A stretch of DNA of 64,000 bases from assembly GCA_001004885.1 (NCBI GenBank), contig LCRX01000014.1:1565-65564 (forward strand), given 5' to 3'. Each line of letters starts with the position of its first letter. Position 1 is the stretch's first letter. The DNA is from Candidatus Magasanikbacteria bacterium GW2011_GWA2_56_11 (lineage in GTDB: Bacteria > Patescibacteriota > Patescibacteriia > Magasanikbacterales > UBA922). Shown here piece by piece: positions 31,515-56,374 of the stretch. The notes under the pieces are model-generated. The model did not search any database. It was not told the origin of the DNA and worked only from the letters and a program-made list of their open reading frames with translations. The translations under genes were made by a program, and so were the position numbers.

Positions 31515-31528
31515 AGGCGAAACAATTT

Positions 31529-31601: not shown

Positions 31602-31642
31602 TGATAAGGGCGAAAGCCCCGCAGCGATATCGCCGTACCCGT

Positions 31643-32773: not shown

Positions 32774-32805
32774 AGATAGTTTACTAGTTTTTTATGATAT
32801 AAACT

Positions 32806-32834
32806 ATCTTATACCTTAGTTTATATGTTGTCAA
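32806..32834 (-). promoter_or_regulatory. sigma70-like promoter for fic with overlapping 10-bp inverted repeat (possible operator)
   Basis: Minus strand TTGACA, 17 nt, TAAGAT. Inverted repeat agatagttta/taaactatct (32775-32809) overlaps the -10 and TSS. Confidence 0.35.
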
Positions 32835-33045
32835 GAGATGAAAACTAAGTATTTTTTTATTCGCTTAGAAGAGCGAATAATGGCCCTCCGGTTCTTTCTT
32901 TTTTGGCCCAAATGTCAACGCATTCATCTTAACCATTAGCGGCCATTATGCGATAAGGAAATTTTCTTACCTTTTTTAAATGTTCTTCCAGAGTATATCC
33001 AATTAATGAATTGGCGCCGAATGCGTATAGGCTGTGAGCAAAATA

Positions 33046-33660
33046 TCACAAGCAGTAATTAATCAAAAAAATATCCATCTCTTGATTTTTGGCGATATTG
33101 TTTAAAAAATAAGCCAGTTTGAATCTTAAATTGCCATCCCATATAATATTTTCGATTCTGCACTGGCCGAACTCCGACAAGGTTTCAAATGTAAAACTTT
33201 TTGGAATTTTAATAACTACATTAGGCGTAATGTATCGTTTAGTTAGATTAAACATTTCTCGCGTGCTTGGTTGCGTATCATCAATGTTGTTTGCGTGAGT
33301 AGGAGGATTTACCCCTTGCATATTCCATTCGGGGTCAAGTATTGCCACATCAGCTGGCAAGCTTTTTAATAAATCAGGATCGAGCGCATCGCCAACGATG
33401 AAGTTAGTCCTCTCTTCTACCCCATATAATACAGCGTTCTTTTTGGCGTCCTCTATCCTTGATGGAATTATATCAACGCCACATGCGCTTTTTAAATGTT
33501 TTGCTAATTGCACGACAATCATGCCGGTGGCGCAACATAGTTCAACTGCGGTTTTAAATTGCGCTAGACTTTTGGCTATGTGTTCACCCACAAATTCAGG
33601 GCAGCTCATATCATAAGCATCCCGATCGGAGAATATATTTTTTGTGAATTTTTTCTTCAT
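33046..33660 (-). CDS. SAM-dependent methyltransferase, Tgs1/RNA-cap guanine-N2 MTase-like
   Basis: VELCCATGMIVVQLA...GVDI...DAKKNAVLYGV...FIVGDALD pattern. Confidence 0.5.
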   Translation of the reverse strand: MKKKFTKNIFSDRDAYDMSCPEFVGEHIAKSLAQFKTAVELCCATGMIVVQLAKHLKSACGVDIIPSRIEDAKKNAVLYGVEERTNFIVGDALDPDLLKSLPADVAILDPEWNMQGVNPPTHANNIDDTQPSTREMFNLTKRYITPNVVIKIPKSFTFETLSEFGQCRIENIIWDGNLRFKLAYFLNNIAKNQEMDIFLINYCL

Positions 33661-33716
33661 AATTCAAGTACGCGCTTTTTCCTGGACCCCACACACGCTG
33701 TTATACTATGTATCGC

Positions 33717-34337
33717 TCAAACCGTCATCTCTACGGCAAAAAGTTCTTTTCTGCATGTGGTCATAATACCGACATGGCAAGCAGCGACCTTGGTGGCCGT
33801 AAATTTTAACGGCAAGATTTCCTGCCCCGCTGCTTCTTTGGTTCGGATTGTAATGTGCGGATCAAAAGCCTCGAAACTGTGAGACGCTGCGAATTTATTT
33901 ATCCAGTCTGGTTCAGCCACTTCCTCGCCCGTTCTTGAGAAAAGCGATCCTTTCGTGCAGTCATATGAAAAGTATTGTCGAAGCCCGTTCATAAGATTCT
34001 CATGAAGCCGCTGTAATTCAGAGGATTTTCTTGCGCGGACGGCATAGATTTTAGATCCATCGGATTTTTCTGCGTAATATAACTCCGCTAGCTCAACGAG
34101 AATCGGACTAAAGTTTTTTACTATACCTTCGACAATACTTTTCACGGTTTCGAGGCTGTCGTCTTCAATGCCACCCATAGCCAATGACATGTGCGGCAGG
34201 AAATCATCTTTCGCCAGCGGACCCCAAGCCGCATTTCTAGTTGCTGCTTGCTGGTTAATATCAATTATCTTTTCCATTACATCTAGGGGCGGAAGAATGG
34301 CCACATCTATTGCTAACTTTTTAGAGATTGTGTTCAT
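33717..34337 (-). CDS. 2H phosphoesterase superfamily protein (LigT / 2'-5' RNA ligase-like)
   Basis: Two H-x-T/S-x motifs (PHMSLA and PHITIR). Confidence 0.5.
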   Translation of the reverse strand: MNTISKKLAIDVAILPPLDVMEKIIDINQQAATRNAAWGPLAKDDFLPHMSLAMGGIEDDSLETVKSIVEGIVKNFSPILVELAELYYAEKSDGSKIYAVRARKSSELQRLHENLMNGLRQYFSYDCTKGSLFSRTGEEVAEPDWINKFAASHSFEAFDPHITIRTKEAAGQEILPLKFTATKVAACHVGIMTTCRKELFAVEMTV

Positions 34338-34370
34338 AGGATTACGCAGAGAGAGATACTTCGCCTAACG

Positions 34371-34489
34371 TTCGCGCCGATGCAAAGTTGCTGCGCGGTA
34401 CAATTTAACGCGGGGCGCTCTAGCGCGCAACAATTTGGATGAGCACGCCCACAAGGAGCGAACTGCGCATGCGCTGTTGTACGATGACC
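34371..34489 (-). repeat. attC-like site
   Basis: + strand cgcctaacgttcgcg ... cgctgttgtacgatgac. Cassette orientation: TACAAC...cgcgaacGTTAGGCG. Confidence 0.5.
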
Positions 34490-34496
34490 ACTTTTT

Positions 34497-34670
34497 CTAT
34501 TTCTTTTTTAAACCGTTCTTTTGCGCGTAAGCTCGTGCTGCTGCAGCGCTCGAACCGCCAGTATATTTCGGTTTAGTTTTTATACTGGCAGAAACAGTTA
34601 CGCCGTCTGTATCTGTTTCTATAGTTATTGAATTGCCTTTGTTGTCGGAATAAGTTTCGATTTTACCCAT
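34497..34670 (-). CDS. small cassette ORF (57 aa, below ORF-track cutoff)
   Basis: MGKIETYSDNKGNSITIETDTDGVTVSASIKTKPKYTGGSSAAAARAYAQKNGLKKK between two attC-like sites. Confidence 0.25.
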   Translation of the reverse strand: MGKIETYSDNKGNSITIETDTDGVTVSASIKTKPKYTGGSSAAAARAYAQKNGLKKK

Positions 34671-34717
34671 ATTGTCTAGATTAAAAGTGATTTAAGTGAT
34701 ATAGAAAAAGTGGCTTT

Positions 34718-34915
34718 CGCGCAACGTTCGTGTGTATGTGAAGTTTTCATCCCGTTTTAACGGAATTACTTTAATTATCAAACACACCTTTTTTAATAAA
34801 CTCCACCCAAATCCTCATCCCTTAAACAGAGAGGATTTAGGTGGAGGAAAATTGGCGCTCTTTAAGGATTTAATTAACGCCAATTTTCCGTGGCCAGATA
34901 TGCGTTGTTATGTCC
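34718..34915 (-). repeat. attC-like site (long, ~200 bp, with 16-bp internal hairpin)
   Basis: cgcgcaacgttcgtgtgtatg ... gatatgcgttgttatgtcc ends. Internal stem ctccacccaaatcctc/gaggatttaggtggag. Confidence 0.45.
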
Positions 34916-34945
34916 TGTAAAAAAAATTTTGCCAAGCTTTTTCTG

Positions 34946-35197
34946 TTATTCTTCAGTGTTTACTCCTACTCCATCATAATATGGCTCATCATCGGCATTG
35001 CAAGATACAAAATTAAGTTCTATACCTCCTTCAAATTTAATAGTAACACCCCCTGAATTATCGAGTTCAAATCCCACTACTACTTTCCCCATTAAAGTCC
35101 CGAGCCGCTTTTCTAATCTCCTCGCGGGTGTATCTTTCTCAACTACCTCCTCAACTACCTCGACTTTTGATATTTCCCTAGGATTTCCTTCAGACAT
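34946..35197 (-). CDS. small acidic hypothetical protein (cassette ORF)
   Basis: 83 aa. Confidence 0.35.
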   Translation of the reverse strand: MSEGNPREISKVEVVEEVVEKDTPARRLEKRLGTLMGKVVVGFELDNSGGVTIKFEGGIELNFVSCNADDEPYYDGVGVNTEE

Positions 35198-35233
35198 ACA
35201 TTAATTATTTAATGATTAAAAATTTTTATTATG

Positions 35234-35340
35234 GCGTATAACGTCGTGTGCATGCGATATGGCACAATGATATATTTTACTCATCATTGTGCCATATGGG
35301 CGAGGCTTCAGCCGAGTCGCATGCACGCTATTATGTGATG
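35234..35340 (-). repeat. attC-like site
   Basis: gcgtataacgtcgtgtgcatgcg ... gcatgcacgctattatgtg ends; central 11-bp hairpin tggcacaatga/tcattgtgcca. Confidence 0.5.
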
Positions 35341-35345
35341 TCGCG

Positions 35346-36041
35346 CTAATTTTTCTGCTCTTTAAAAGAGATATCCTTCATTAAAGTATCAAGTCCATCG
35401 GCCTTGCTGTAACTTACAACCGCTTGGAGGTGATAATCGCCAAATGCATTCGGTACAAAATATTCCAGTCGACTGATTTGCCCCTGGTCAAACATTTTCT
35501 CGAAATAGTCTGTTTTTACACGCAATGCATTTTTGCCATTCACGCTTACTTTTTGCGCGGTGGCATTTTTATTTTCGTAACCAAGCGCCTTTATTATTTC
35601 AGATTCTGACTGGTTAAAGTTAATGCATTCAAAACAAGTAGTGCTGTAATCTGCTGCTGCCGGAGCAAAATCTTTCGTTTCCCACCAAAGTTGCGGCGTT
35701 GATGGAGCATTATCAACGCTTGTATATTTTTCATTTGCAAAGCCAATTTTAAATAGCTTTCCTATGCCGTCTTTGTGTGTCTCATCTGTAAATTTTGGTG
35801 TGCCCCACGAATTGTTATAACAGAAAGAAAGATTTTGCGATTCATACATTGTCCAGTTTTGGGGACATTCTACTTTTGTTTCTGTGCGCTCGACTGTCTT
35901 TTCACTTACAACTCGTGTTGAGGTAATGTCGGGTGCTGTCTCAGCATTTCTATTTTGCCAAAGAAAAATGCCACCGCCTACAACGACGACTGTAACTATA
36001 ACAGCAAGGCCGATTGTCCATGGATTAGTTTTGTACTCCAT
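35346..36041 (-). CDS. membrane-anchored/secreted hypothetical protein (cassette ORF)
   Basis: 231 aa, N-terminal TM, Cys-containing extracytoplasmic domain. Confidence 0.45.
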   Translation of the reverse strand: MEYKTNPWTIGLAVIVTVVVVGGGIFLWQNRNAETAPDITSTRVVSEKTVERTETKVECPQNWTMYESQNLSFCYNNSWGTPKFTDETHKDGIGKLFKIGFANEKYTSVDNAPSTPQLWWETKDFAPAAADYSTTCFECINFNQSESEIIKALGYENKNATAQKVSVNGKNALRVKTDYFEKMFDQGQISRLEYFVPNAFGDYHLQAVVSYSKADGLDTLMKDISFKEQKN

Positions 36042-36100
36042 AATGTTTTGGTTAAGAATTAAACCTACTTTAATGTAAAAGAAAAATTAGCGCAATTTCG

Positions 36101-36163
36101 CATAACCTTCGCGTCTCATCTACTGTAGAGCGCTTGCGGAATGGCGGGTAGACGCTGTTATGT
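36101..36163 (-). repeat. attC-like site (~63 bp)
   Basis: Cassette orientation: (stop)TAACagcgtc ... gagacgcgaagGTTATGCG. The Nudix stop codon lies inside the R''-like core. Confidence 0.5.
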
Positions 36164-36682
36164 GATGTGCATCCCGGAGCCAACATTATTTGAAAAATAG
36201 TCAACACATTCTTTGGTAGATTTTAGAAAAATATCAGGAAAATCAGCTAATTTCTTAAGTAACTCCTCTCTAGAGAACCATTTTATTTGTTCGACTTCTT
36301 CCTTTTGGATTGTAAACTCATGAATATCTTTATCTAACAAGGCAAAATACCACTGTACAAAATGTTTATGTTTACCGTCATTCATTTTATAAAACGCCTT
36401 TTCGAAGTGACAGTTATTTAAACCAATTTCTTCCTCGGCCTCCTTAATGATATTTGATTCATAGGTTTCTCCCTGGTCAATGGTCCCTGCAACGGCAGGC
36501 CCCCATTTTCCGGGGTCATGCTTTTTGTTGAATGATCGTTGGGCTAGGAGGGTGTCACCTTTAGAATTCTGAATCCATAAGGCCGAGACGCGATAGATGT
36601 CTTCTGGTTTCAAAGTTCCTCGCTCTTTCAATCCAATGACGCTATCCTTTTCATCGACAATTATAATTTTTGCCTTACTCAT
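36158..36682 (-). CDS. NUDIX hydrolase
   Basis: Nudix box GTIDQGETYESNIIKEAEEEIGL. Confidence 0.6.
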   Translation of the reverse strand: MSKAKIIIVDEKDSVIGLKERGTLKPEDIYRVSALWIQNSKGDTLLAQRSFNKKHDPGKWGPAVAGTIDQGETYESNIIKEAEEEIGLNNCHFEKAFYKMNDGKHKHFVQWYFALLDKDIHEFTIQKEEVEQIKWFSREELLKKLADFPDIFLKSTKECVDYFSNNVGSGMHIT

Positions 36683-36731
36683 ATTCGTTTACAATTCAAT
36701 GCTTTCTTGCGAAAAGCTCCGGGCAGCATAT

Positions 36732-36861
36732 CACATAACGTTCGCGCGTATCGATGTTCACTGGCTGTATAATATCGCGAAGCGGTACAGCCAGCAAATA
36801 TGGGCGGAGGCTTGCGGAGGAACGGAGCAAGCCGTAGCCGCATACACGCTGTTAGCTGATG
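36732..36861 (-). repeat. attC-like site
   Basis: Cassette orientation: catcAGCTAACagcgtgtatg ... catcgatacgcgcgaacGTTATGTG; central 8-bp hairpin. Confidence 0.5.
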
Positions 36862-36904
36862 TAAATAAATTCAATGAGCGAAGCGAATATTATTCAGACA
36901 AATT

Positions 36905-37513
36905 TTAAAAAAATCCCAAGAGATTGAAAAACAATCTAACAGAAAAAATGATAATCACTAACGATGCCAGGAAATTGAAACTAGCGATTATTTTTTTGTT
37001 GCCGGTTTTATTGATCGCTGAACCTAGATAGACGACTACAACGAAACAAAGAAATGATCCGATTGACAAAGATAGTGAGTTAGCTATGATTGTTTGAAAG
37101 ATATGCTCTTTTATGTTTAGAAAGGAAGTTGCGACTCCAATAAAATAAACATAAGTAAGAGGAGATAGCGCACAGAGAACCATTCCATTTAGAAAGGATT
37201 GTTTTTCAATCGGGTTGTCACTATTACTTAACTTTCCAAGACTTTTTAGAAAACCTGTTATTCCAACGAATAACATATAGCCGACGCCGACCATTCCGAT
37301 ACCATAATACAGCCAAGGAATTTTTATAAATTGACTGATTCCAAAGTAGCTCAATACAAGAATAATAAAGTTCATTGTCGCTACACCAGATGCCAAAACA
37401 ATCCCTTGGCGTTTTTTACCAAGAAGCGAAGTTTGTAATACTGTTGTTTGAATCACACCTGGGGAGGCGGCGGCGCTAAAACCGATTATAAAGCTTGAAA
37501 GTAATAGTGACAT
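36905..37513 (-). CDS. LysE/RhtB family amino-acid exporter
   Basis: 202 aa, 6 TM helices, LysE-type N-terminal pattern. Confidence 0.6.
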   Translation of the reverse strand: MSLLLSSFIIGFSAAASPGVIQTTVLQTSLLGKKRQGIVLASGVATMNFIILVLSYFGISQFIKIPWLYYGIGMVGVGYMLFVGITGFLKSLGKLSNSDNPIEKQSFLNGMVLCALSPLTYVYFIGVATSFLNIKEHIFQTIIANSLSLSIGSFLCFVVVVYLGSAINKTGNKKIIASFNFLASLVIIIFSVRLFFNLLGFF

Positions 37514-37570
37514 TTTTTAAAATTTGTCTGAATAATTTTTCGGCCACAGCCGAAAAGAATTTATTTATTT

Positions 37571-37673
37571 CAGCTAACGTTTCGGCATATCTGATGTTTG
37601 CCGTAGCGTAGCGGAGGCAAATATGGGTGGAGGCTTTTGTAAAAAGCCGTAACCAGATATGCCGAACATCTCA
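37571..37673 (-). repeat. attC-like site
   Basis: cagctaacgtttcggcatatctg ... cagatatgccgaacatc inverted arms; the HNH stop codon abuts the site. Confidence 0.5.
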
Positions 37674-38264
37674 ATCAATACCTTCAGTTTTTAACAGTGC
37701 TTTAACGCATAACGAGTATTCTTTGTCTTCTTCTGCCTCTGGTTTTATGCTTTCTAATACTGCTTCTTTTGCACTATCTTCTAGCTTTGCACATGCTCCA
37801 ATAACTTTTTTGAGCAAATTGATTCTATCTTGTCGTCTTTCAATTAAAGCTGGGCGGTTTAGGTGCACGCCGCTTTGCTCTTCAATGGTAATTTTTCCTT
37901 TTGTTGAATTATCCTTATGTGCAAAGAAAGCTCCCAATACGACTATATGTGTTTCGGGGTCTTCATCGTATGGATTAAGGATTGGATTTGCTTCATCATA
38001 TTTGTCAGATTTATAGCCGTTGCAACGTGCACAGACGTATCCTAAATTTCCCCAATCAAATTCTAAGCCTGGGAATTTTGACTTTGGCTTTATGTGTTCA
38101 ATGTCACCGTAGTAAGTATGGGATACTTTGCTTTCGCAATACATGCATTTATCATGACTGGCCAAGATGAGAACCGCCTTGTTGTCAGGGTGTTTATAAT
38201 TTGTTCTCAATGCCTCTTGATTTGGGCATTGTGGTCTACTTAGTTTGATCATTTGAATTTTCAA
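37671..38264 (-). CDS. HNH endonuclease (PtuB-like)
   Basis: CMYCESK...GDIEHIKPKS...CARCNGYK HNH/zinc motif; overlaps the ATPase gene by 29 bp. Confidence 0.6.
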   Translation of the reverse strand: MKIQMIKLSRPQCPNQEALRTNYKHPDNKAVLILASHDKCMYCESKVSHTYYGDIEHIKPKSKFPGLEFDWGNLGYVCARCNGYKSDKYDEANPILNPYDEDPETHIVVLGAFFAHKDNSTKGKITIEEQSGVHLNRPALIERRQDRINLLKKVIGACAKLEDSAKEAVLESIKPEAEEDKEYSLCVKALLKTEGID

Positions 38265-39480
38265 TTAAGCTGTAAACGGCTTCGGGCATGATTTTCTCTA
38301 GTCCCATTTCCTTTAACTCATTGCGCATTTGAGTAAATTTTTCTTTGGTAATGCTTTCTTTCGAGTATTTTGCGACTATCTCATTCAACTTATCTTCTAC
38401 CCATATTGGCATTGTAAAGGCCACGCCCAAAACTTCATCCAATATTTCCGCCGCTGTCTTTGCTTTATTTATGAAGTCTAGTCGTTCACTGACAATTTTA
38501 TTGTTTTCGTTATATCTCAAGGCGTATACATTTGATTCTTTAACTGAACCAACAATGAGCGGATTATGAGTAGAGACGATAAAGCGTGTATTTGGAAACG
38601 CCCCAAGGAAGTCTGGCAATATTTGCCGTTGCATTGTCGGATGAAGATGATTTTCAACTTCATCTATTAAAACAGTAAAATTGGGATTATCTTTTTCCTC
38701 TGTGGCATAAAAATAAATTTGCCAAGCAAGGTCTATTATTGCGCTTATTCCACCAGATGAAGCATCAATAACAAACTCACCTGATGTACAAATCAGTAGA
38801 ACCTCTGAGTTTCGTATAGCAAATTTTTGAAAACCTAAAGTTTTGGGCAGTACTTTTTTAAGTACCTCTTGAAAACCATTGTAATATTCGAGAAGGGTTT
38901 CATTCGCATCCATATCTTTGTTGCCTTGGCCAAAAATACTCCAGCAAATGAGAGCTTCTTTTATATGAAAACTACTTGGAACGTCATTTCCGCCACCATA
39001 TCTACTTTTGTTACTATTCCAAACTTTATCGAAAGCCTGTTTTTTGTTGATTGTATTTGCGGTTGGAATTTGAGTTACTTTTTGGTATCTGAATATTGAT
39101 CTATGTGAGGGGATGAAAAAGCACTTTACTCCTTGTTGCCCCTCGATTTGCATGTTGTATTGTGCCTCGTTTTGTTCTTTTGGCACCTTCAATATAGCTT
39201 TTTGTCCATCACTATAATTTAATTCACCTTTAGTATCTTTTGGCTCCTCATCTTCCACCCAAAAGGAAGAGAACCATTTCCAAACCTTGGTTTTTATGTC
39301 CTTTTTTGGAGTTGCTAAGGATTTTGCATCCCAACCGCAATGTCTTGCTAAAAGATGCAACAGAGTTGTTTTACCACTTGCATTTGCGCCTGTTAAAATA
39401 GTCAACCGATCATGGAAATCTATTTCGATATTTTCAAATTGTTGCCACTCCGCTGTAATTTTTAATTTTTTGAAATCCAT
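38236..39480 (-). CDS. AAA_21/ABC-type ATPase (PtuA/OLD-like)
   Basis: Walker A GANASGKTT. Walker B VLIDEVENHLHP. STHNP motif. Confidence 0.65.
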   Translation of the reverse strand: MDFKKLKITAEWQQFENIEIDFHDRLTILTGANASGKTTLLHLLARHCGWDAKSLATPKKDIKTKVWKWFSSFWVEDEEPKDTKGELNYSDGQKAILKVPKEQNEAQYNMQIEGQQGVKCFFIPSHRSIFRYQKVTQIPTANTINKKQAFDKVWNSNKSRYGGGNDVPSSFHIKEALICWSIFGQGNKDMDANETLLEYYNGFQEVLKKVLPKTLGFQKFAIRNSEVLLICTSGEFVIDASSGGISAIIDLAWQIYFYATEEKDNPNFTVLIDEVENHLHPTMQRQILPDFLGAFPNTRFIVSTHNPLIVGSVKESNVYALRYNENNKIVSERLDFINKAKTAAEILDEVLGVAFTMPIWVEDKLNEIVAKYSKESITKEKFTQMRNELKEMGLEKIMPEAVYSLIENSNDQTK

Positions 39481-39501
39481 AGATTGATCCTACTGCAAAA
39501 C

Positions 39502-40440
39502 CTATTTTTTAAATTCTCTGAAGTACTTGCCGAATACTTTCTGGAACAAAACTGTTTTTTCATAAAGCCAAGCAAAATATTTTTCTGCTTCGGCTTGGTC
39601 AAATACGCCTGAAACTTCCTTTTTAATTTTTATACGGGAGGCGACGGCCGCATCCACCCATTCGATAGACTCGCCAATTTCTTTTTCAATTTCTGCTTTT
39701 CGTTCGCGTAAAAAAATAAATAAGTCTTTATTTCTGCTGATATAAATCTCACAGCCAATCAAGTTTTCACGAGAGTTAATAGTTAGTGCTACATGGCCGT
39801 CTGAACTGCCCATGCTAACATCGTACCAATGTTGAGGGCGAGGAGTTTGTAGTCGGATTTGGGTGTCGTTTTCTCGTACATAATTTTTGAATTTGTTCCA
39901 AAATTCAAGCTGTTGCAATTTTGTATCAGTTAGCTCGCCATTTGATGGACTTGTCTTAATTGCCTTTGCCCATTCATTTGGACTAACCATAATCTCAAAT
40001 TTTGGCGCAGGATTCGAGCCTTCTATTTGCCAAAGTTCAATTTTTATCAAAAAGAAACCGATATTTTCATCTGTATGTTCGTTAAGCCAATCGATCGCTT
40101 TTTGATGTTCATCGCGTACATCTTTAACAATCCAAATAATTATTTCCGCATCGTATCCCGACGCATAAGTAATAATTTTTCCTAAATGATCGTGGTTGGT
40201 ATCTTCGAGCTGATTTTCGATTATAATCTTTCTCCCTGACGCTTCTTCTTCGGCGAGGATATCAACGCTAAATTTTCCCACGCTCGCTTCGGTTTTGATA
40301 AGTTTTATATCAACGCCTATTTCTTCACTCAAGGCATCAAGATTTTCTTGCTGTGCGAGCCAGTTAGTAAAATCAATGGCTTCGTGACTCCAGACATCGC
40401 GTAGTTCAACTTTATTTAGTTTAGATAGTGATTTTTTCAT
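39502..40440 (-). CDS. DUF4268-like protein with possible PD-(D/E)xK nuclease core
   Basis: 312 aa; VDILAEEE...IIIENQL motif; 21 bp upstream of the ATPase gene with no attC between them. Confidence 0.45.
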   Translation of the reverse strand: MKKSLSKLNKVELRDVWSHEAIDFTNWLAQQENLDALSEEIGVDIKLIKTEASVGKFSVDILAEEEASGRKIIIENQLEDTNHDHLGKIITYASGYDAEIIIWIVKDVRDEHQKAIDWLNEHTDENIGFFLIKIELWQIEGSNPAPKFEIMVSPNEWAKAIKTSPSNGELTDTKLQQLEFWNKFKNYVRENDTQIRLQTPRPQHWYDVSMGSSDGHVALTINSRENLIGCEIYISRNKDLFIFLRERKAEIEKEIGESIEWVDAAVASRIKIKKEVSGVFDQAEAEKYFAWLYEKTVLFQKVFGKYFREFKK

Positions 40441-40607
40441 AGTGTAAATTTACTTACTGTTATTGTATTCGTTTTCCCCTTATAAATAAATCGTTTTCGG
40501 AGCAAAGCGGAGAAAACACCTTATATCCCCTTTAAAAATAAAGAAAAAGAAATTTGAAAATTTTTTAAAACAATTGGGCGATAGCCCAAAAAAGAAAAGG
40601 AATATTT

Positions 40608-40750
40608 CAGCTAATGTTCGCGTGTATGAGAAGTTTCGCCGACTTCCTTACTCTTAATTATAGAGGAGGCGAAATTTGGGTGAAAGAAAAAGTGCAGCCG
40701 CTGAAAAATATTAACGCACTTTTTCTTAAACCTCATACACCCTGTTAGGC
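40608..40750 (-). repeat. attC-like site (~143 bp) after the first cassette
   Basis: Cassette orientation: (stop TAA inside) GCCTAACagggtgtatgag ... ctcatacacgcgaacATTAGCTG. Confidence 0.55.
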
Positions 40751-41080
40751 GATGTATTCTTTTTCTTTGTTATCATCTTTATTTTTATTTTTTTCATCAT
40801 AGTACTCATAATTTTTCTTATTGCCCCAAACTCTAAATTTGGCAACCATAAAACCACTGATGATAAGTGCCACTCCTATTTTCCAGTTTATAAAGAGAAA
40901 AATTAATCCTGCGATTACTAATTCTCCAGTAATCACGCTTAATAGAGGATTTGGTCCCAAAGGAAAAACGTGCAATAGCGTGCCAATGATGAAAAGCACT
41001 ATTGATACTTGCCAGTTGAAAAAAATAAAAACGATTGCGGCGATTGCCATCAGATACTTTATTGCGTTTAGAATTTTCAT
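40745..41080 (-). CDS. small membrane protein (first cassette after attI-like site)
   Basis: 111 aa, 3 TM helices, Lys/Asp-rich tail; stop codon inside GCCTAAC. Confidence 0.4.
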   Translation of the reverse strand: MKILNAIKYLMAIAAIVFIFFNWQVSIVLFIIGTLLHVFPLGPNPLLSVITGELVIAGLIFLFINWKIGVALIISGFMVAKFRVWGNKKNYEYYDEKNKNKDDNKEKEYIA

Positions 41081-41104
41081 AATTTTATCTTAAAAGAAAA
41101 AGAA

Positions 41105-41131
41105 TATTTCACCTAACTGGCCGTTATAACC
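41105..41131 (-). other. attI-like site (GTTAGGT core) between cassette 1 and the recombinase gene
   Basis: Minus strand GTTATAACggccaGTTAGGTgaaatatt. The gaaat(a/t) motif after the core is shared with the R' ends of attC sites at 40608 and 37571. Confidence 0.4.
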
Positions 41132-41206
41132 AATGTTTTTTAATTAACAGCCAAAATTTGTATGATAAACGAATAGATGCTAGGCTTAGGTTACTTTTCA
41201 AAAAAC

Positions 41207-42019
41207 ATGGCAAACCTAATCGAAATTCTAACACGAGAGATAAAATTGCGCAATTACAGCCCAAAAACGCTGGCGGCCTATGTTTTTGTTGTCAGGGACA
41301 TCTATGCCTTTCACCAGCGGCCGCCAAAGGAACTCACAACTGAAGATATAAAGGACTACCTCCTGGCCAAGCAAAAAAAAGGCCTGTCAAGCCAGACCGT
41401 CGCCCTTTATGCCAACGCGCTCAACTTTCTCTATGGCGAGGTGTACAAACGCCCCAACTTTGTCCGGATTAAACACCCCAAACGGTCCTCACGGCTCCCG
41501 GTGGTGCTGCGCCGGGACGAAATCGAGCGATTGTTGGCTGTCATCAAAAATATTAAGCACCGAACGCTGGTGGCGCTGGCCTATGGCGCCGGACTCCGAG
41601 TGGGCGAGGCGGTGCGTCTCAGGGTCGCGGACATTGACCTTGACGAGCTCACGATAACCGTGCGCCAAGGAAAGGGTAAAAAAGACAGGCTGACCGTTCT
41701 ATCCGCAAGTCTGACGCCGGACTTGCGTGAATTTATGACTGGCAAAACTGGCCAAGCGTATATTTTCGGCAGCGAACGGGGCGGCCGTTTAACCGAAGCC
41801 ACCGCGCAAAAAGTATTCGTCCGCGCGCTCCAAAAAGCCGGCGTTGTAAAGCCGGCCACCTTCCATTCGCTGCGCCACTCCTTCGCCACTCACCTCTTGG
41901 AAAACGGCGTGGACGTGCGCTATGTGCAAGAGCTATTGGGACACGCCAATATCCGCACCACGCAAATTTATACCAAAGTAACGAATCCAAGGCTCAAAAA
42001 TATCAAAAGCCCCCTATGA
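41207..42019 (+). CDS. tyrosine site-specific recombinase, XerC/XerD-like (candidate cassette integrase; lacks IntI additional domain)
   Basis: R...K...HSLRHSFATHLL...LLGHANIRTTQIYTKV catalytic motifs. ~42 aa between K-box and HxxR (XerD length, not IntI). 4-bp ATGA overlap with elp3. Confidence 0.8.
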   Translation: MANLIEILTREIKLRNYSPKTLAAYVFVVRDIYAFHQRPPKELTTEDIKDYLLAKQKKGLSSQTVALYANALNFLYGEVYKRPNFVRIKHPKRSSRLPVVLRRDEIERLLAVIKNIKHRTLVALAYGAGLRVGEAVRLRVADIDLDELTITVRQGKGKKDRLTVLSASLTPDLREFMTGKTGQAYIFGSERGGRLTEATAQKVFVRALQKAGVVKPATFHSLRHSFATHLLENGVDVRYVQELLGHANIRTTQIYTKVTNPRLKNIKSPL

Positions 42020-43680
42020 CCCCGGCCGAACAAATCTTGACGGCCGTCATGGCCACGCGTCCGACCACCAAAACCCAATTTGACCAAGCCCGGGCGGGTA
42101 TTTGCGGCCAGCTCAAAATTCAGCAGATGCCGAATCGCGAACTTTTGGAAGCCTACCGGCGCCTGGTCAAAAAGAAAAAGATTGTCGCGGACAAAATCAT
42201 AGAAAATTTTTTGCGTAAAGCCGAAATCCGCAGCCTCTCGGGCATCGCGGTCGTTACCTCGCTCCTCAAGCCCTACGCCTGCCCGGGAGAATGCGTCTAC
42301 TGCCCGACCGAGAAGAGAATGCCCAAGAGCTATATCGCCACCGAGCCGGCCGCGGCGCGAGCGCTCGCCCTCAAATTCAGCCCCTACGAGCAGATGCGCC
42401 AGCGCGTTCTCATGCTCGAAAAAAACGGACACCGGACGGACAAGATTGAGTATATAGTCAAGGGCGGAACGTGGAATGCCTATACCCTCGGTTACCAGTA
42501 CTGGTTTATCCTCGAGTCTTTCCGGGCGGCCAACGAGATACGCCGGCGCAATCCGCCGGCGGCGCAGTACTCCGAGCATACCCCGGTCAGCGAGCTGCAA
42601 GAGGCCTTGGAGCGCGAGCAAAGGCGCAACGAAACCGCCAAGCACCGGATTATCGGGCTCACCCTTGAAACTCGGCCCGACGCCATTTCTCCCCGAACTA
42701 TAGGCCATCTGCGCCGGCAGGGCTGCACGCGGGTAGAGCTCGGACTCCAGGCGCCGGACGACCGGATACTCGCGCTCATTAAACGTGGGCACACCGTGGA
42801 GCAGTTTCGCGCGGCTATGCTTCTTTTGCGCCAGGCCGGATTCAAGGTGGATCTGCATTTCATGCCGGATCTGCCCGGCACTACGCCCGCGCATGATGTC
42901 GAGATGTACGCGTCTCTCTTTAGCGATCCGGGCCTCAAGCCGGACATGGTGAAGATTTATCCGAGCATGGTCGTCAAATCGGCCGAACTTTACCAGTGGT
43001 TCCTCGACGGCCGGTACAAACCGTATGGCGACACGCCGGAGCTGGCCGAGGCGCTGATCAAAATGAAGCTCGCGACCCCGCGCTACTGCCGCCTCTCGCG
43101 GCTCATCCGCGATATCCCGGCCAACGAAATCTCCGGCGGCAACGCGGTAACCAATCTGCGCGAACTTTTGGCCGCGCGCCTCAAAAAAGATAATAAACGC
43201 TGCGTCTGCCTGCGCTGCCGCGAGATCGGCCGGCAGCAGCCCTTATCCCCTCCTGACTCCGCGCCGGAACTCTTTATTGACAAATACAAAACTACCGGCG
43301 GCACCGAATATTTTTTAAGTTTTGAAGACCAAAAACGCACCGCTGTCTTCGGCTTTTTGCGCTTGCGCCTGCCGGACTTGGGCCAAACGGCAGCCGTACC
43401 GGCGCTAAAAAAACTTTATGAGTCGTTGCCGGAGATAAGGCAGGCCGCCTTTATCCGCGAGCTGCACGTCTACGGGCAGCTGGTCGGCATCGGCCAACGC
43501 GACCATAAGTCCAGCCAGCACAAAGGAGTGGGGAAAAAACTCATGGCCGCGGCCGAAAGAATTGCCCGCCGGGGCGGGTACCGGAAAATTGCCGTCATCT
43601 CGGGCGTGGGAGTCCGCGATTATTATCGCCGCCTGGGCTACCGCAAAAGTGGCAGCTACCTGGCAAAAAAACTGGCTTGA
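42016..43680 (+). CDS. elp3: Elp3-like tRNA modification enzyme (radical SAM + GNAT)
   Basis: CPGECVYCP radical SAM cluster. IEYIVKGGTWNAY. C-terminal QHKGVGKKLMAAAERIARRGGYRKIAVISGVGVRDYYRRLGY GNAT domain. Confidence 0.8.
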   Translation: MTPAEQILTAVMATRPTTKTQFDQARAGICGQLKIQQMPNRELLEAYRRLVKKKKIVADKIIENFLRKAEIRSLSGIAVVTSLLKPYACPGECVYCPTEKRMPKSYIATEPAAARALALKFSPYEQMRQRVLMLEKNGHRTDKIEYIVKGGTWNAYTLGYQYWFILESFRAANEIRRRNPPAAQYSEHTPVSELQEALEREQRRNETAKHRIIGLTLETRPDAISPRTIGHLRRQGCTRVELGLQAPDDRILALIKRGHTVEQFRAAMLLLRQAGFKVDLHFMPDLPGTTPAHDVEMYASLFSDPGLKPDMVKIYPSMVVKSAELYQWFLDGRYKPYGDTPELAEALIKMKLATPRYCRLSRLIRDIPANEISGGNAVTNLRELLAARLKKDNKRCVCLRCREIGRQQPLSPPDSAPELFIDKYKTTGGTEYFLSFEDQKRTAVFGFLRLRLPDLGQTAAVPALKKLYESLPEIRQAAFIRELHVYGQLVGIGQRDHKSSQHKGVGKKLMAAAERIARRGGYRKIAVISGVGVRDYYRRLGYRKSGSYLAKKLA

Positions 43681-52700: not shown

Positions 52701-54332
52701 CTAAGCCAGACAGGCTCCGATAAAATCGCGGAATAACGGGTGCGGACGGAACGGCCGGGACTGAAATTCGGGGTGAAACTGCGTGCCGACGAAAAAAGGA
52801 TGTTCGGCGAGTTCGACTATCTCCACCAAATCAGATTCAGGGTTGATGCCCACCACCCGCAAACCGGCCGCATCTATCGCCTCGCGATATTCATTATTGA
52901 ATTCATAGCGGTGGCGGTGGCGCTCGGAAACCAAGTCCGCCCCGTAAGCCGCGTGCGTTTTGGTACCGCGGCGCAGGGCGCAGTCGTAAGCGCCCAGGCG
53001 CATAGTGCCGCCGTAACGATTGTTCCGGACGTTCGCCGCCTGGTTGGGGTTGATATGAATGACCGGTTCGGCGGTGTCGGGGCTGACCTCCACGGTATGG
53101 GCCGTTTTTTTGCCCAAAACGTGGCGCACGAACTCGATCGAAGCCAGCTGCATGCCATAGCACAAACCCAGGTAAGGCTTTTTCTCCTCGCGCGCGAACT
53201 TTATCGCCCGGATAATACCTTCAATGCCCCGGCTGCCGAAACCGCCCGGCACGATAAGGCCGTCATACCCGGCCAGTTCTTTAACCTTGGCCGGGTTAGC
53301 CTCATACCGCTCGGAGTCGATCCACTCGAGCACCGGCTTGGCCCGATGGTGCCAGGAAGCGTGTTTAATAGCCTCAATCACCGAATGATAGGAGTCGGCC
53401 AGGGTAAAATCGCCGGTGCCGAAGTATTTGCCGACGACCGCGATTTTAACTTCGCGCTCCGGCTGCAGGATACGGTGGACAAAGTCGTGCCACTTTTTCA
53501 TGTCCGTCTGCCGCCTCTTCATGCCGAGCACCTTGAGCAGCTTATTGCCCACGTCCTGCTCCTCGAGCTTCACCGGTATCTGGTATATAGACGGCACGTC
53601 CGGGGCGGAGATGCAATTCTCCCTGGATACCCCGCAAAAAACCGCCAGCTTTTCCAGCCGCGGCTTGTCGAGCTCCAGCCGGCCGCGCGCCACGATCATA
53701 TCCGCGTTGATGCCCACGCTGTTAAGCGCGCGCGAAGCGTGCTGCGTCGGCTTAGTCTTCATTTCGCCGATATGCGCCGGCACCGGCAAATAACTCACGA
53801 GTACAAAAGCCACGTCAGCCGGACTCTGCAGCTTCATCATGCGGGCCGCCTCCAAAAACAGCAGGTTCTCATACTCGCCGACCGTACCGCCGATCTCGAC
53901 AATGGTGATGTGCGCGTCGTGCCGCTTGGCCGCCTCGCGGATACGACGGATAATCTCCTCTGGAATATGCGGCACCACCTGCACGCACCGTCCTTTGTAC
54001 TTCATTTGCCGTTCGTTCTCGATCACTTTCAGGTATACCCGTCCGGTCGTCATGTAATTATTGGAGTCCAAGTCCGTGTCCAGAAACCGTTCGTAGTTGC
54101 CCATGTCCTGGTCGGTTTCGTCGCCGTCGTTGGTCACGAACACCTCGCCATGCTCGATCGGATTCATCGTGCCGGCGTCGACATTCACGTAAGGATCAGC
54201 CTTGAGCGCGGTAACCCGCAGTCCCTTGGCCTTGTAGATGGCGCCGAGCGAGGCCGAGGTTACTCCCTTGCCGACGCCCGAGAGGACGCCGCCGACGACG
54301 AAAATGAACTTACGCTGAATCGAGGCGGGCAT
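52701..54332 (-). CDS. pyrG: CTP synthase
   Basis: N-terminal synthetase GGVLSGVGKG, C-terminal GATase with GLCYGMQ catalytic Cys. Confidence 0.9.
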   Translation of the reverse strand: MPASIQRKFIFVVGGVLSGVGKGVTSASLGAIYKAKGLRVTALKADPYVNVDAGTMNPIEHGEVFVTNDGDETDQDMGNYERFLDTDLDSNNYMTTGRVYLKVIENERQMKYKGRCVQVVPHIPEEIIRRIREAAKRHDAHITIVEIGGTVGEYENLLFLEAARMMKLQSPADVAFVLVSYLPVPAHIGEMKTKPTQHASRALNSVGINADMIVARGRLELDKPRLEKLAVFCGVSRENCISAPDVPSIYQIPVKLEEQDVGNKLLKVLGMKRRQTDMKKWHDFVHRILQPEREVKIAVVGKYFGTGDFTLADSYHSVIEAIKHASWHHRAKPVLEWIDSERYEANPAKVKELAGYDGLIVPGGFGSRGIEGIIRAIKFAREEKKPYLGLCYGMQLASIEFVRHVLGKKTAHTVEVSPDTAEPVIHINPNQAANVRNNRYGGTMRLGAYDCALRRGTKTHAAYGADLVSERHRHRYEFNNEYREAIDAAGLRVVGINPESDLVEIVELAEHPFFVGTQFHPEFQSRPFRPHPLFRDFIGACLA

Positions 54333-54395
54333 AGATGGAAAGCGCTATTTAATTATCGCCGTTTTGTTAAAGACACTTTTGAACTGATACTAAGT

Positions 54396-54482
54396 TATTA
54401 GCAATTCTATTCTCTAAGTCGAGCCGAAACATAGACTGATTTTTACGGCCCCAATGTCTGAGCCTGCAAGAGCGAGTTGACT
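54396..54482 (-). repeat. palindromic repeat element, copy A (inverted relative to copies B and C)
   Basis: Reverse complement near-identical to 55049-55137. Confidence 0.8.
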
Positions 54483-54487
54483 TTGGA

Positions 54488-54934
54488 TTAGACTTCGGAG
54501 ACGATGACCGTAATTTCGGCCTCCAGTCCGTGGCCGAAGCGGATAGTTACCCGGTGCTCGCCCAGCGATTTGATCGGCTCGGACGAAGCAATCTGCCGCG
54601 GCGAAACCTGAATGCCGGCTTCGCGCTTGATAGCTTGGGCGATTTTGGCGCCGCTTAGGGCGGCATAAAGGGTACCTTCATGGTTGACCTTTTCTACCAG
54701 GTCAATTTCGACTCCATCAAGCCGGGCCGCGTCGCGCTGCAGATGCCGGAGTTCGGTCTCCATTCCCCGGCGCCGCCGATCCTCTTCGGCCTGGACATGG
54801 GCGACTGCCTGGTCCGTGGCCGCCGTCGCTAATTTACGGCTTAACAAAAAATTGCGGGCGAAACCGTCCGCCACTTCTTTCACTTCGCCTTTTTTCCCTG
54901 TCCCGGGCACGTCCTTGAGCAGGAGTACTTTCAT
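54488..54934 (-). CDS. rplI: 50S ribosomal protein L9
   Basis: MKVLLLKDV...[10 protein letters not shown]-terminal domain and L9 C-terminal domain. Confidence 0.8.
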
Positions 54935-55014
54935 ACCTCGAAAGTATAACCAGGGGTTGAATTTTTGGCAAGGGACTGCTAGTATAGGGTCATCTAAAGA
55001 ACTCATGGCGAGCC

Positions 55015-55137
55015 CCCCTTCGCCTCAAACAGAGACTGGTTTTCACGGCTCCAAAACTCGCTCTTGCAGGCTCAGACATTGGGGCCGTAAAAATCAGTCT
55101 ATGTTTCGGCTCGACTTAGAGAATAGAATTGCTAATA
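55015..55137 (+). repeat. palindromic repeat element, copy B (~120 bp)
   Basis: Internal hairpin arms aaacagagactggttttcacggcccc / ggggccgtaaaaatcagtctctgttt; abuts era start. Confidence 0.8.
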
Positions 55138-55152
55138 ACTTAGTATCAGCAG

Positions 55153-55896
55153 ATGACGCGGGACATTATCCACGGAGTGATCAACACGCCCGAAGGCCAG
55201 GCCGTTATCATTGATACGCCGGGAATTTTCAAAGACCGAAAAAGTTCGTTGACCGCCAAGCTCATAAACAAGGCCAAGGAGGCCATCGCTGGCGTGGACG
55301 TGATAATTTATGTTGTCGACCCTACGCGGGAAATCGGCGCCGAGGAGCGCTACACATACGGGCTTATCCGGCACCTTGGCGTGCCAAAAATACTGGTCAT
55401 CAATAAAAGCGATTTGCCGAAAAATGAACGGCCGTTCCAGGCGGATTACGAAGCCTGGAGCGATAACTTTGACGCGGTTTTTTCCCTGTCGGCTCTGCGC
55501 GCGAGCCACATCAAGCCGCTTATTGATAAGCTCATCTCTCTTATGGCAGAGGGCGAGCCGCTCTACCCGCCCGAACAGCTGACCAACGTGAACAACTACT
55601 TCTGGGTAGCGGAAATCATCCGGGAAAAAGTCTTCTCCGTCTTCGACAAAGAAGTCCCCTACTCGATGACCGTTGAGACCGACAATATAGAAGACAAGTC
55701 GGATGTGATCGTTATTTCCGCGCGCATCCTCACCGACGAAGCGCGCTACAAAAAAATTATCATCGGCGCCCGCGGCGCCAAAATAAAAGAGATCGGCCAA
55801 CTGGCTCGACGCGAGTTGGAGCAGGCCCTGAACAAGAAGGTCTATCTGGAACTCGAGGTGGAGGTAGACAAGCACTGGGTGGAGCGGATGGAGTAG
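55153..55896 (+). CDS. era: GTPase Era, N-terminally truncated (G1 P-loop missing)
   Basis: Starts at G2/G3 region (IIDTPGIF), has NKSD G4 and C-terminal KH domain, but no GxxxxGKS. Upstream sequence is the repeat element with stops in all frames. Confidence 0.6.
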   Translation: MTRDIIHGVINTPEGQAVIIDTPGIFKDRKSSLTAKLINKAKEAIAGVDVIIYVVDPTREIGAEERYTYGLIRHLGVPKILVINKSDLPKNERPFQADYEAWSDNFDAVFSLSALRASHIKPLIDKLISLMAEGEPLYPPEQLTNVNNYFWVAEIIREKVFSVFDKEVPYSMTVETDNIEDKSDVIVISARILTDEARYKKIIIGARGAKIKEIGQLARRELEQALNKKVYLELEVEVDKHWVERME

Positions 55897-55971
55897 TCAA
55901 ATTGACAAAGGCAGACGGAGACTTTACACTACCTATACCTAATGAACTCATGCGCGAGTTTCCCCCCTTTC

Positions 55972-56092
55972 GCCTCAAACAGAGACTGGTTTTCACGGCC
56001 CCAAAACTCGCTCTTGCAGGCTCAGACATTGGGGCCGTAAAAATCAGTCTCTGTTTCGGCTCGACTTAGAGAAGAGAATTGCTAATAACGCA
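55972..56092 (+). repeat. palindromic repeat element, copy C
   Basis: ~95% identical to copy B over ~120 bp. Confidence 0.8.
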
Positions 56093-56122
56093 CTATCAGT
56101 TCAATTTTTAAAGGAGGGAAAT

Positions 56123-56374
56123 ATGAATGAAGATTTATTAATCCAGGAAGTGGTCAAGCTGCGGGAAAACGTAGACCAGATAAAAGAGAACATGCTAACC
56201 AAAACGGATAAGCCTGAAATCATGTCGGCCCTGGACGCGGTGATGAAGTCAAATCAAGATATTAAACAAGAATTGGTCTTTATCGGTTCGCATCTGGATC
56301 GACACGAAAAACGGCTGGACGACCACGAAGTCCCGATCGCCAAACTTCAACTGGACATCAATCCTGCGTGCTAA
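56123..56374 (+). CDS. small coiled-coil hypothetical protein
   Basis: SD AGGAGGG 7 nt upstream; 83 aa. Confidence 0.4.
   Translation: MNEDLLIQEVVKLRENVDQIKENMLTKTDKPEIMSALDAVMKSNQDIKQELVFIGSHLDRHEKRLDDHEVPIAKLQLDINPAC

Follow-up and report, generated by a model that had tools for sequence, protein, structure and literature searches.

A short 5' UTR repeat and inversion of the rplI segment between two of its copies in a groundwater Magasanikbacteria lineage

Organisms of the CPR are uncultivated, and their genome dynamics have been little studied. In other bacteria, REPINs consist of two inverted arms of ~25-28 nt around a short spacer that together form one long hairpin, and they are non-autonomous. 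In the CREE (Correia elements) of Neisseria, the pairing is provided by 26-bp terminal repeats, accompanied by a TA duplication and an IHF site. Integron attC sites have an R''-L''...L'-R' architecture with a GTTRRRY core and form cassette boundaries near an integrase. According to PMC2649163, PMC10969869, and PMC9778887, CREEs are non-coding elements of ~100-160 bp that form a long stem when transcribed; they are located mostly just upstream of genes and are co-transcribed with them, their stems are substrates of RNase III, and they have been implicated in inversions and rearrangements. ERIC sequences, or IRUs, are described in PMC10969869 as 127-bp imperfect palindromes in transcribed intergenic regions, with a lineage-dependent copy number and with no transposase known for them in that account, and the same source gives ~10-50 bp for the terminal inverted repeats of MITEs (PMC10969869).

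Here, we describe a repeat unit of ~160 nt in the NCBI assembly of Candidatus Magasanikbacteria bacterium GW2011_GWA2_56_11, a member of the groundwater Magasanikbacteria (CPR). The stretch of this assembly that was analyzed, referred to below as the window, is 64 kb long. We consider it reasonably probable that the unit is a lineage-specific, low-copy repeat of the MITE/ERIC/Correia-like kind, that a segment of the genome is inverted by homologous recombination between two copies, and that the truncations seen in the window are errors of the deposit.

The copies in the window surround two genes. The gene for ribosomal protein bL9, rplI (54488-54934, minus strand; 148 aa, with Pfam matches to Ribosomal_L9_N and Ribosomal_L9_C), lies between pyrG (CTP synthase; 52701-54332, minus strand) and a remnant of era (55153-55896, plus strand). 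The era remnant is followed by an 83-aa ORF of unassigned function (ORF83; 56123-56374, plus strand) and then by genes for an F420-ligase-like protein, a DUF4440 protein, AdoMet decarboxylase, and OTCase. Copy A (54379-54478, minus strand), identified from inverted-repeat pairs and an nhmmer match to model positions 63-160, is upstream of pyrG and in the same orientation; it is partial in the window, comprising the loop, right arm, and 3' tail (the 3' two-thirds of the unit) without a hairpin of its own. Copy B (54997-55149, plus strand) is in the 5' UTR of era and has the full unit minus the last 4-5 nt (covariance-model match, 167 bits), and copy C (55942-56103, plus strand) is a full unit in the 5' UTR of ORF83 (191.9 bits). 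The long hairpin spans 55027-55106 in copy B (arms 55027-55054 and 55079-55106, with a 24-nt loop) and 55977-56056 in copy C (arms 55977-56004 and 56029-56056, 93% complementary). Copies B and C are direct repeats with 95% identity over 137 nt (55013-55149 and 55963-56099), and their homology, counting indels, extends over 54997-55149 and 55942-56103. Read as its reverse complement, copy A is 100% identical to copy B over 95 nt (54384-54478 and 55055-55149) and 95% identical to copy C (54379-54478 and 56005-56104). With up to three mismatches allowed, the 28-nt arm matched the window five times and had no match in 100 shuffles, so the repeats are not due to chance. A covariance model of the unit, run over the whole 64 kb, recovered copies A, B, and C and no others.

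These results agree in part with a first-pass annotation of this DNA, which had recognized B and C as direct repeats of ~95% identity and A as their inverted complement. The unit is longer than the ~120 bp given there, and the description of every unit as a hairpin applies to copies B and C, with a 28-bp stem each, and not to what is left of copy A. Copies B and C do bracket era as annotated, in a form that is 5'-truncated in the window. The annotation had also set this family apart from attC-like repeats; the covariance model found nothing in the low-GC cassette island, and attC core motifs are absent from the unit. We rejected attC identity because the stem ends read CTCAAAC...GTTTCGG rather than RYYYAAC/GTTRRRY and because the copies lie 13 kb from the cassette island, with none inside it.

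The unit begins with a ~35-nt 5' leader that contains a small hairpin; a C-rich tract, the hairpin with its 28-bp stem and 24-nt loop, and a ~48-nt 3' tail with another small hairpin follow. The hairpins of copies B and C have a fold z-score of -7.3 as RNA and -5.9 as DNA, and the z-scores across copies range from -7.3 to -8.6. In an alignment of nine full copies (164 columns; mean identity, 93%), no variation is seen in the non-palindromic leader, in the tail, or in the 5' half of the loop (CCAAAACTCGCTCTT). Three variable pairs in the 3' hairpin keep pairing on the plus strand via G-U/A-U changes, and the leader sequence AGCGAGUU reads as complementary to AACUCGCU in the loop. The copies resemble one another too closely for covariation to be significant, with 48 of 500 shuffles reaching the observed score, and a strand-asymmetry test of the long stem found equally good pairing on both strands. 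The termini share just GAACT(C)...(C)AGTTC, or 5-6 bp, which is degraded in one copy (L014). The 28-bp inverted repeat lies inside the unit, set in by ~35 nt on the 5' side and by ~48 nt on the 3' side. A peptide encoded from the unit's own ATG was considered and rejected: copy B has no ATG, and the sole reading frame through the unit contains stop codons in two copies (L013 and L015). A protein-database search with the unit translation, aimed at spurious ORFs over diverged copies, returned the copy C locus only. Scanned against Rfam at gathering thresholds, the window yielded RNase P as its sole match and no family for the repeat unit, and a permissive scan of 54300-56200 yielded just sub-threshold hairpin-shaped miRNA and snoRNA matches.

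Two deletions relative to all other assemblies account for the truncated features of the window. At 54478/54479, 120 nt are missing, comprising the left arm and leader of copy A, the pyrG promoter (TGGTATAAT), and the rplI terminator; at 55149/55150, 122 nt are missing, comprising the end of copy B, 5' UTR sequence, and era codons 1-35. The junctions read GAGCGAGTT/GACTTTGG and TATCAG/CAGATGACG, with AGAGCGAGTTGACTTTGGATTAG and TTAGTATCAGCAGATGACGCGG as the junction-spanning strings, and each deletion begins at the plus-strand end of an exact-repeat core. Aside from these deletions, 3 SNPs in 17.6 kb separate the window from contig L001. Three full copies, including a full-length copy A (L001 8016-8176), and a full era of 283 aa are present in independent assemblies of the strain; the 283-aa form is on at least eight other contigs, and the 247-aa Era is found on the NCBI contig only. 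The Pfam MMR_HSR1 match of the 247-aa protein starts at profile position 33, so that the G1 P-loop is missing, and the 5' end of era occurs nowhere in the window. Other scaffolds have N-gaps or contig breaks within the same elements, and we could construct no single inversion or slippage event that yields both deletions. Given the comparison between assemblies and the essentiality of Era, the truncated copy A and truncated era are probably errors of assembly or curation. The probable error concerns a public reference MAG, whose Era protein KKW41737.1 lacks the P-loop in that deposit alone.

The unit is present at a minimum of six loci. In addition to those upstream of pyrG, era, and ORF83, a 21-mer scan located copies 5' of an mgtE-like gene (L013) and of the gene for a 482-aa membrane protein (L014, L012), as well as one between pyk and ppsA (L015), all with unique flanks. 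These copies are from the same organism or population as the window; the MgtE protein of L013 is 100% identical to that of GW2011_GWA2_56_11. The first-pass annotation had allowed for the possibility that only three copies exist, as a collapsed assembly artifact, which the three or more further loci contradict. No exact 21-mer match occurred in 185,579 species genomes, and two scans of viral contigs were likewise negative. For comparison, we used thirteen loci of related Magasanikbacteria with Era proteins 68-83% identical to that of this lineage, most of which keep the gene order PLD-pyrG-rplI / era-F420 ligase. Neither nhmmer nor the covariance model detected a further or diverged copy in these thirteen loci or anywhere in the window. 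The intergenic regions of the relatives, where measured, are typically ~40-100 nt, with some longer, compared to 227-276 nt here. Judging from these genomes, the unit appears to be confined to one species-level lineage, and the 89-95% identity between copies suggests that it spread recently. The mgtE site contained the unit in all five assemblies checked, with no presence/absence polymorphism that would catch recent movement, and a search for close PpsA relatives that might supply a fourth empty site returned just distant or partial proteins.

These observations bear out in part the earlier proposal of a MITE- or REP-type mobile palindrome. Like a MITE, the unit is small, non-coding, and non-autonomous, and it is dispersed over six loci, with the orthologous sites of the 13 relatives empty. 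The 28-bp inverted repeat, however, is internal rather than terminal, and no transposase or RAYT was found among the ORFs scanned in the 64-kb window and genome fragments. In four copies the unit is flanked by AA at both ends and in two by A, which in AT-rich UTRs could arise by chance, and the empty sites of the relatives are too diverged to decide whether a target site was duplicated. A total of ~6 copies is low for a mobile family. The copies also differ from REP/REPIN sequences in that all are in 5' UTRs and none lies between convergent genes.

The placement of the unit is nearly uniform. All six copies are in a 5' UTR and co-oriented with the gene, whose start codon follows after 14-70 nt. 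In five copies, the -10 box ends 11-13 nt before the GAACTC core, and four of these five have an extended -10 box, TGnTAnnnT. At this distance, the unit would be transcribed as the very start of the mRNA, and transcription must read into the gene because no terminator lies 3' of the unit. Promoter Pb (TTGAAT-17-TAGTAT, preceded by TGc; 54957-54985, plus strand), which was read from the sequence and is below the threshold of the promoter scan, ends 13 nt 5' of the GAACTC core of copy B, in the position of the era promoter in relatives (L016, L019, L020, L023-L026). Promoter Pc (TTGACA-17-TACACT; 55902-55930, plus strand), identified by the promoter scan and comparison with relatives, likewise ends 13 nt 5' of the core of copy C, in the position of the promoter of ORF83 homologues. 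Together, the -35 and -10 boxes of era, ORF83, and pyrG in relatives align with Pb, Pc, and the pyrG promoter, Pa. At sites A, B, and C, relatives without the unit have the -35 box, spacer, and -10 box in the same positions, for which reason we rejected the idea that the unit brings its own promoter there. The promoter scan also detected a promoter-like site for rplI (TTGCCA-17-TATACT; 54943-54971, minus strand). Copy B and the copy in L013 both carry TGCTAGTAT. Three of the promoters ahead of the unit are demonstrably ancestral.

The first-pass annotation had pointed out that copies A and B flank rplI in inverted orientation as a potential invertible segment, and both orientations are indeed seen in independent metagenome assemblies, with breakpoints inside the two copies. 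The segment between the exact inverted cores (54384-54478 and 55055-55149) is 54479-55054, with a length of 576 nt in the window and of 696 nt in contigs that are intact. Copies A and B share a 101-nt identical core. The segment contains rplI, the rplI promoter, promoter Pb, and the left half of copy B. The left halves (leader and left arm) move with the segment, and the right halves remain with pyrG or era. In L001 (MEGAHIT k141) and L008 (k127), rplI is co-oriented with pyrG; in L002 (k141), it is on the opposite strand, co-oriented with era, and the A- and B-site copies differ in sequence. Because the k-mer length exceeds the shared core, each junction is spanned by real reads. A further contig, L011, matches L001 at 100% over 2921 nt once L001 is inverted in silico between the cores, and the conclusion that copies A and B have flipped rplI between them in natural populations holds. 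Flipping within one strain, which involves L011, a contig of unstated assembler and k-mer size, is less secure than the difference between strains. We suggest that homologous recombination between A and B, probably of the RecA type, would flip the ~0.7-kb segment, reversing rplI and letting pyrG and era exchange the promoter and leader halves by which they are driven. Such a flip would silence no gene, since each breakpoint is downstream of a promoter.

Random transposition does not explain the constant spacing from the -10 box or the orientation of every copy toward a gene, and these two features fit a selected cis-acting RNA at least as well as a MITE-like repeat. The unit could be a cis-regulatory 5' leader RNA, a shared post-transcriptional module duplicated onto a set of genes, whose distance from the transcription start site is fixed because the 5' hairpin or the long stem must be at the 5' end of the mRNA; possible roles are RNase III processing, 5'-end stabilization, and regulator binding, and the inversion would be a side effect. 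The invariance of the leader, loop 5' half, and tail, the pairing retained on the plus strand in the 3' hairpin, the complementarity of leader and loop, and the read-through into the gene all point in this direction. Nevertheless, we regard this explanation as unlikely, although worth keeping in view, given that thirteen relatives have the same genes and promoter positions without the unit, that the similarity of the copies indicates recent spread, and that the downstream genes have no evident common function. The covariation score attained by shuffles, the equal pairing of the long stem on both strands, and the lack of an Rfam match also weigh against it.

It is improbable that the rplI segment is a programmed inverton, a regulated switch in which a site-specific recombinase acts inside the unit, for example at the invariant loop. 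Both orientations exist, and in L002 the A- and B-site copies agree over a short stretch and diverge to either side of it; had the exchange happened in that background, it would have been confined to a few tens of nucleotides at the invariant loop 5' half. A tyrosine recombinase of the XerA/integron-integrase type, the nearest gene of a recombinase kind observed, is encoded ~13 kb from the segment (41177-42019). However, this recombinase adjoins its own cassette array, and no recombinase gene adjoins the segment or is among the genes within 10 kb of it. The repeats, at 100-160 bp with a 101-bp perfect core, greatly exceed the usual length of invertase sites and offer RecA ample homology, no gene is turned off in either orientation, and haplotype L032, unless it is chimeric, requires a crossover elsewhere in the repeat. 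We consider it far less credible still that the extra copies and the inversion are assembly artifacts of one repeat, a reading that is contradicted in large part. The two deletions at repeat edges in the window, the breaks or N-gaps within units in several assemblies, and the chance that L032 is a strain chimera would be compatible with it, but three full copies with identical flanks are found again and again, across at least eight samples and three assembly pipelines. In addition, the k141 and k127 contigs run through the 101-nt core into unique sequence at either end, the L002 cores differ and so cannot be confused, and the copies at unrelated loci have flanks of their own.

We return to the lineage-specific repeat inverted by homologous recombination as the preferred explanation. 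The rplI segment provides a documented natural case, in a CPR bacterium, of an inversion polymorphism that encloses a gene for a ribosomal protein and is driven by a short interspersed repeat. The ~160-nt non-coding element would have been copied into the 5' UTRs of six or more transcription units, always pointing to the gene, and may have a role at the RNA level, for instance by offering the long stem to RNase III or by shielding the 5' end of the mRNA. If its strict placement just after promoters applies genome-wide, this would be an unusual rule of targeting or selection. We speculate, as a rather doubtful extension, that the unit is a portable 5'-UTR cassette that is installed, or retained only, a few nucleotides past transcription start sites, bringing unrelated genes under shared RNA-level control. 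If this is true, pyrG, era, mgtE, ppsA, and others would be under one RNA-level control in a minimal CPR genome, and pairs of cassettes would additionally permit reversible promoter swapping by inversion. The unit would then represent either a new insertion specificity, directed at the open complex or the initially transcribed region, or a regulatory leader of a new class that has spread recently.

Among known systems, classical invertons such as fimS and hin resemble the rplI segment in that a promoter-carrying segment bounded by inverted repeats is present in both orientations in the population. Those systems have 9-30 bp repeats, an adjacent dedicated recombinase, and an ON/OFF outcome, whereas the rplI segment has repeats of 100-160 bp, no adjacent recombinase, and promoters for every gene either way. 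REPINs share with the unit the two inverted arms and short spacer that form a long hairpin. They number in the tens to hundreds, contain little beyond the hairpin, need a RAYT, and are mostly in gaps between convergent genes or at 3' ends, a location opposite to that of the unit. ERIC sequences are similar in size and are likewise imperfect palindromes in transcribed intergenic regions, with no known transposase; they are old, widespread across families, and found in either orientation at 5', internal, and 3' operon positions, in contrast to a unit that is in one species-level lineage, always 5', co-oriented, and at a near-constant distance from the -10 box. The likeness to CREEs extends to size, lack of coding capacity, a long transcribed stem, and a position directly 5' of genes, although there is no sequence relation between the two. 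The 28-bp arms of the unit are internal; the conserved sequence beyond them, ~35 and ~48 nt, is non-palindromic, and no clear duplication is seen. CREEs number in the hundreds, compared to ~6 copies of the unit, and they create promoters, whereas the unit lies downstream of promoters that are ancestral. With these differences, the unit is closest in kind to MITE-like intergenic repeats, namely ERIC and Correia elements.

Copy A (54379-54478, inverted) of a hairpin-containing repeat lies between pyrG (52701-54332, minus strand) and rplI (54488-54934, minus strand). A divergent promoter region separates rplI from copy B (54997-55149), followed by era (55153-55896), a TTGACA-17-TACACT promoter (55902-55930), copy C (55942-56103) and an 83-aa ORF (ORF83, 56123-56374), then F420-ligase-like, DUF4440, AdoMet-decarboxylase and OTCase genes. 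An ungapped alignment of copies B and C gives 95% identity across 137 nt, and copy A is the reverse complement of copy B (100% over 95 nt) and of copy C (95% over 100 nt). Allowing up to 3 mismatches, the window contains five instances of the 28-nt arm, compared to none in 100 shuffles, and the 64 kb contain no further copy. The repeats reported in the first-pass annotation are real, but its unit of ~120 bp required correction to ~160 nt (leader, left arm, loop, right arm and tail), and copy A, which it counted among the hairpin units, consists in the window of loop, right arm and tail only. About 35 codons, the G1 P-loop among them, are missing from the start of era in the window, and a search of the rest of the window did not find this 5' end.

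Comparison with other assemblies indicates that the truncated copy A and the truncated era are probably assembly or curation errors. Exact-protein look-ups retrieved contigs from groundwater metagenomes in ENA, JGI and Logan. Two of these contigs, L001 and L008, differ from the window by only 3 SNPs over 17.6 kb and by two clean gaps. At 54478/54479, the window is missing 120 nt directly after core A, the exact inverted-repeat stretch of copy A, with the left arm and leader of copy A, the pyrG promoter TGGTATAAT and the rplI terminator. At 55149/55150, 122 nt are missing directly after core B, the matching stretch of copy B, with the last bases of copy B, the 5' UTR and era codons 1-35. The second gap is the cause of the 247-aa, P-loop-less Era (NCBI protein KKW41737.1, Candidatus Magasanikbacteria bacterium GW2011_GWA2_56_11), which is encoded by one 89,953-nt contig only, compared to at least eight contigs for the 283-aa Era. 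No other assembly of the strain has either gap, and every other contig with gapless sequence across these sites bears three complete units and encodes the 283-aa Era. We read the gaps as errors because each starts where an exact repeat ends on the + strand, an essential motif is lost, and no single natural event producing both could be constructed. Other scaffolds also carry 10-N gaps within or beside units, and contigs L005-L007, L029 and L044 terminate inside copy B. The N gaps in the ANAN16 scaffolds (L003 779-788, concealing ~210 nt of the era 3' end, and L010 around 640) show that the repeats break assemblies repeatedly.

The potential for inversion of the rplI segment, raised in the first-pass annotation, is realized in natural populations. 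Orientation O1, with rplI co-oriented with pyrG, is found in the window, ERZ27254745, ERZ978281, ERZ28563808, JGI 3300025088 and JGI 3300025309, and is the order of all relatives; orientation O2, with rplI co-oriented with era, is found in ERZ27254750 and JGI 3300025308. The JGI 3300025308 contig matches L001 inverted in silico between the two cores at 100% over 2921 nt. The identical core in the L001 strain is 101 nt, shorter than k in the MEGAHIT contigs concerned (k141 for L001 in O1 and L002 in O2, k127 for L008 in O1), and the two cores of L002 differ at ~8 positions, so mis-pairing by the assembler cannot account for either O1 or O2. Inversion is further marked by diagnostic positions: the leader and left arm move with the rplI segment, and the loop, right arm and tail remain with pyrG or era, as predicted for reciprocal exchange inside the units. 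L032, possibly a strain chimera, was given no weight here. The genes within 10 kb of the segment do not include a recombinase; the nearest one, a tyrosine recombinase of the XerA/integron-integrase type, is 13 kb away and adjoins its own cassette array. The simplest mechanism would be homologous recombination between the 100-160-bp repeats. As read from sequence, in O1 the TGGTATAAT promoter behind the rplI terminator would drive pyrG and TTGAAT-17-TAGTAT would drive era, and in O2 these promoters are swapped and rplI reads toward era, so that the flip would leave no gene without a promoter.

A check for copies beyond the window with a 21-mer from the unit tail recovered four more JGI loci. 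They fall into three sites: one precedes an mgtE-like gene that diverges from holA (L013), one lies in the pyk-ppsA interval (L015), and one precedes a gene for a 482-aa membrane protein (L014, equivalent to L012). The L013 MgtE is 100% identical to a GW2011_GWA2_56_11 protein, and L013 and L015 have one common IMG genome identifier, indicating that these copies reside in the same organism or population. Each of the six copies is oriented toward a gene, with the start codon 14-70 nt downstream, and none lies between convergent genes. In five, the -10 box ends 11-13 nt ahead of a GAACTC core; the promoter elements are TGGTATAAT (copy A), TGCTAGTAT (copy B and L013), TGCTATACT (L015) and TTGACA-17-TACACT (copy C), of which only the last passed the promoter scan threshold, the others being identified by eye. 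The L014 copy has a weaker and more distant -10 candidate.

The unit had no match in 13 related Magasanikbacteria loci (Era identity 68-83%), most of which retain the order PLD-pyrG-rplI / era-(ORF83)-F420 ligase. The measured pyrG-rplI, rplI-era and era-to-next-gene spacers of these relatives mostly fall at ~40-100 nt, with a few longer, compared to 276, 233 and 227 nt, respectively, in the unit-bearing organism. The relatives' era promoter (a TTGAAA-like -35, a 17-nt spacer with GGCAAG, then the -10) lines up with that ahead of copy B, their ORF83 promoter (TTGACA-17-TAnnnT) with that ahead of copy C, and a TGGTATACT box behind the rplI terminator of L025 with that ahead of copy A. These alignments show that the promoters are ancestral and that the unit is an insertion at the start of each 5' UTR. 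Minus the unit, the era and ORF83 UTR lengths match those of relatives. The same extended -10 box, TGCTAGTAT, stands just upstream of copy B (54977-54985) and the mgtE copy (L013 3193-3201); it could be a piece of upstream sequence copied along with the unit, although the copy B promoter otherwise looks ancestral. One relative, L026 (Era 73% identical), has an unrelated hairpin with 50-nt arms in its era 5' UTR (2126-2235), a few nt past the -10 box, where copy B landed.

Nine full copies align with a mean identity of 93%, and the unit is predicted to run from a 5' hairpin through a C-rich tract and the long hairpin to a 3' hairpin. The long hairpin of copies B and C is predicted to have a 28-bp stem and a 24-nt loop (z-scores -7.3 as RNA and -5.9 as DNA); the long stem pairs equally well on both strands, and the L014 copy has arms of perfect complementarity. 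Covariation among the aligned copies was not significant, and the unit matched no Rfam family. Each unit has three instances of the motif AACTC(A/G)C, in the leader, loop and tail (alignment A1 columns 4-19, 64-70 and 147-153; in copy C, about 55945-55960, 56005-56011 and 56087-56093), and one of its complement, GCGAGTT, in the leader. Because of this complementarity, the leader could form local pairs, a pseudoknot with the loop, or pairs with the tail; the positions involved are invariant among copies. A leader tract of copy C (UUUCCCCCCUUU, 55959-55970) complements the Shine-Dalgarno region of the 83-aa ORF (AAAGGAGGGAAA, 56109-56120) at 11 of 12 positions. No other copy has such a partner, so this match may be chance.

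Elsewhere in the window, the best Rfam score for an RNase P RNA (77-390, +) comes from the archaeal model RF00373 (125.8 bits, full length) and not from a bacterial model, though the genome is bacterial (CPR). A low-GC island (~28000-42100; GC 37-45% compared to about 57%) contains a series of small, unrelated genes that all run in one direction (GNAT+NUDIX, Fic, methyltransferase, 2'-5' RNA ligase, NUDIX, LysE, AbiEii-like AAA protein and DUF4268) and adjoins a divergent tyrosine recombinase (41177-42019) that reaches the NCBIfam cutoff for the XerA/integron-integrase type. This layout is integron-like, and the island is probably the region of the attC-like repeats named in the first-pass annotation.

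The unit is not an attC site, in agreement with its earlier separation from those repeats, and was also rejected as a classical inverton. Its earlier labeling as a MITE/REP-type mobile element is plausible but unproven: the unit lacks the terminal inverted repeats of a MITE, the A or AA that flanks its copies may be a target-site duplication or chance, and it differs from REPIN in copy number and position. Promoter-proximal placement is the sole feature of the unit that no explanation so far covers. In its transcription, its location close to genes, its long stem and its promotion of rearrangement, the unit resembles ERIC and Correia elements (PMC10969869, PMC2649163, PMC9778887). We regard it as a known kind of repeat but a new family within that kind.
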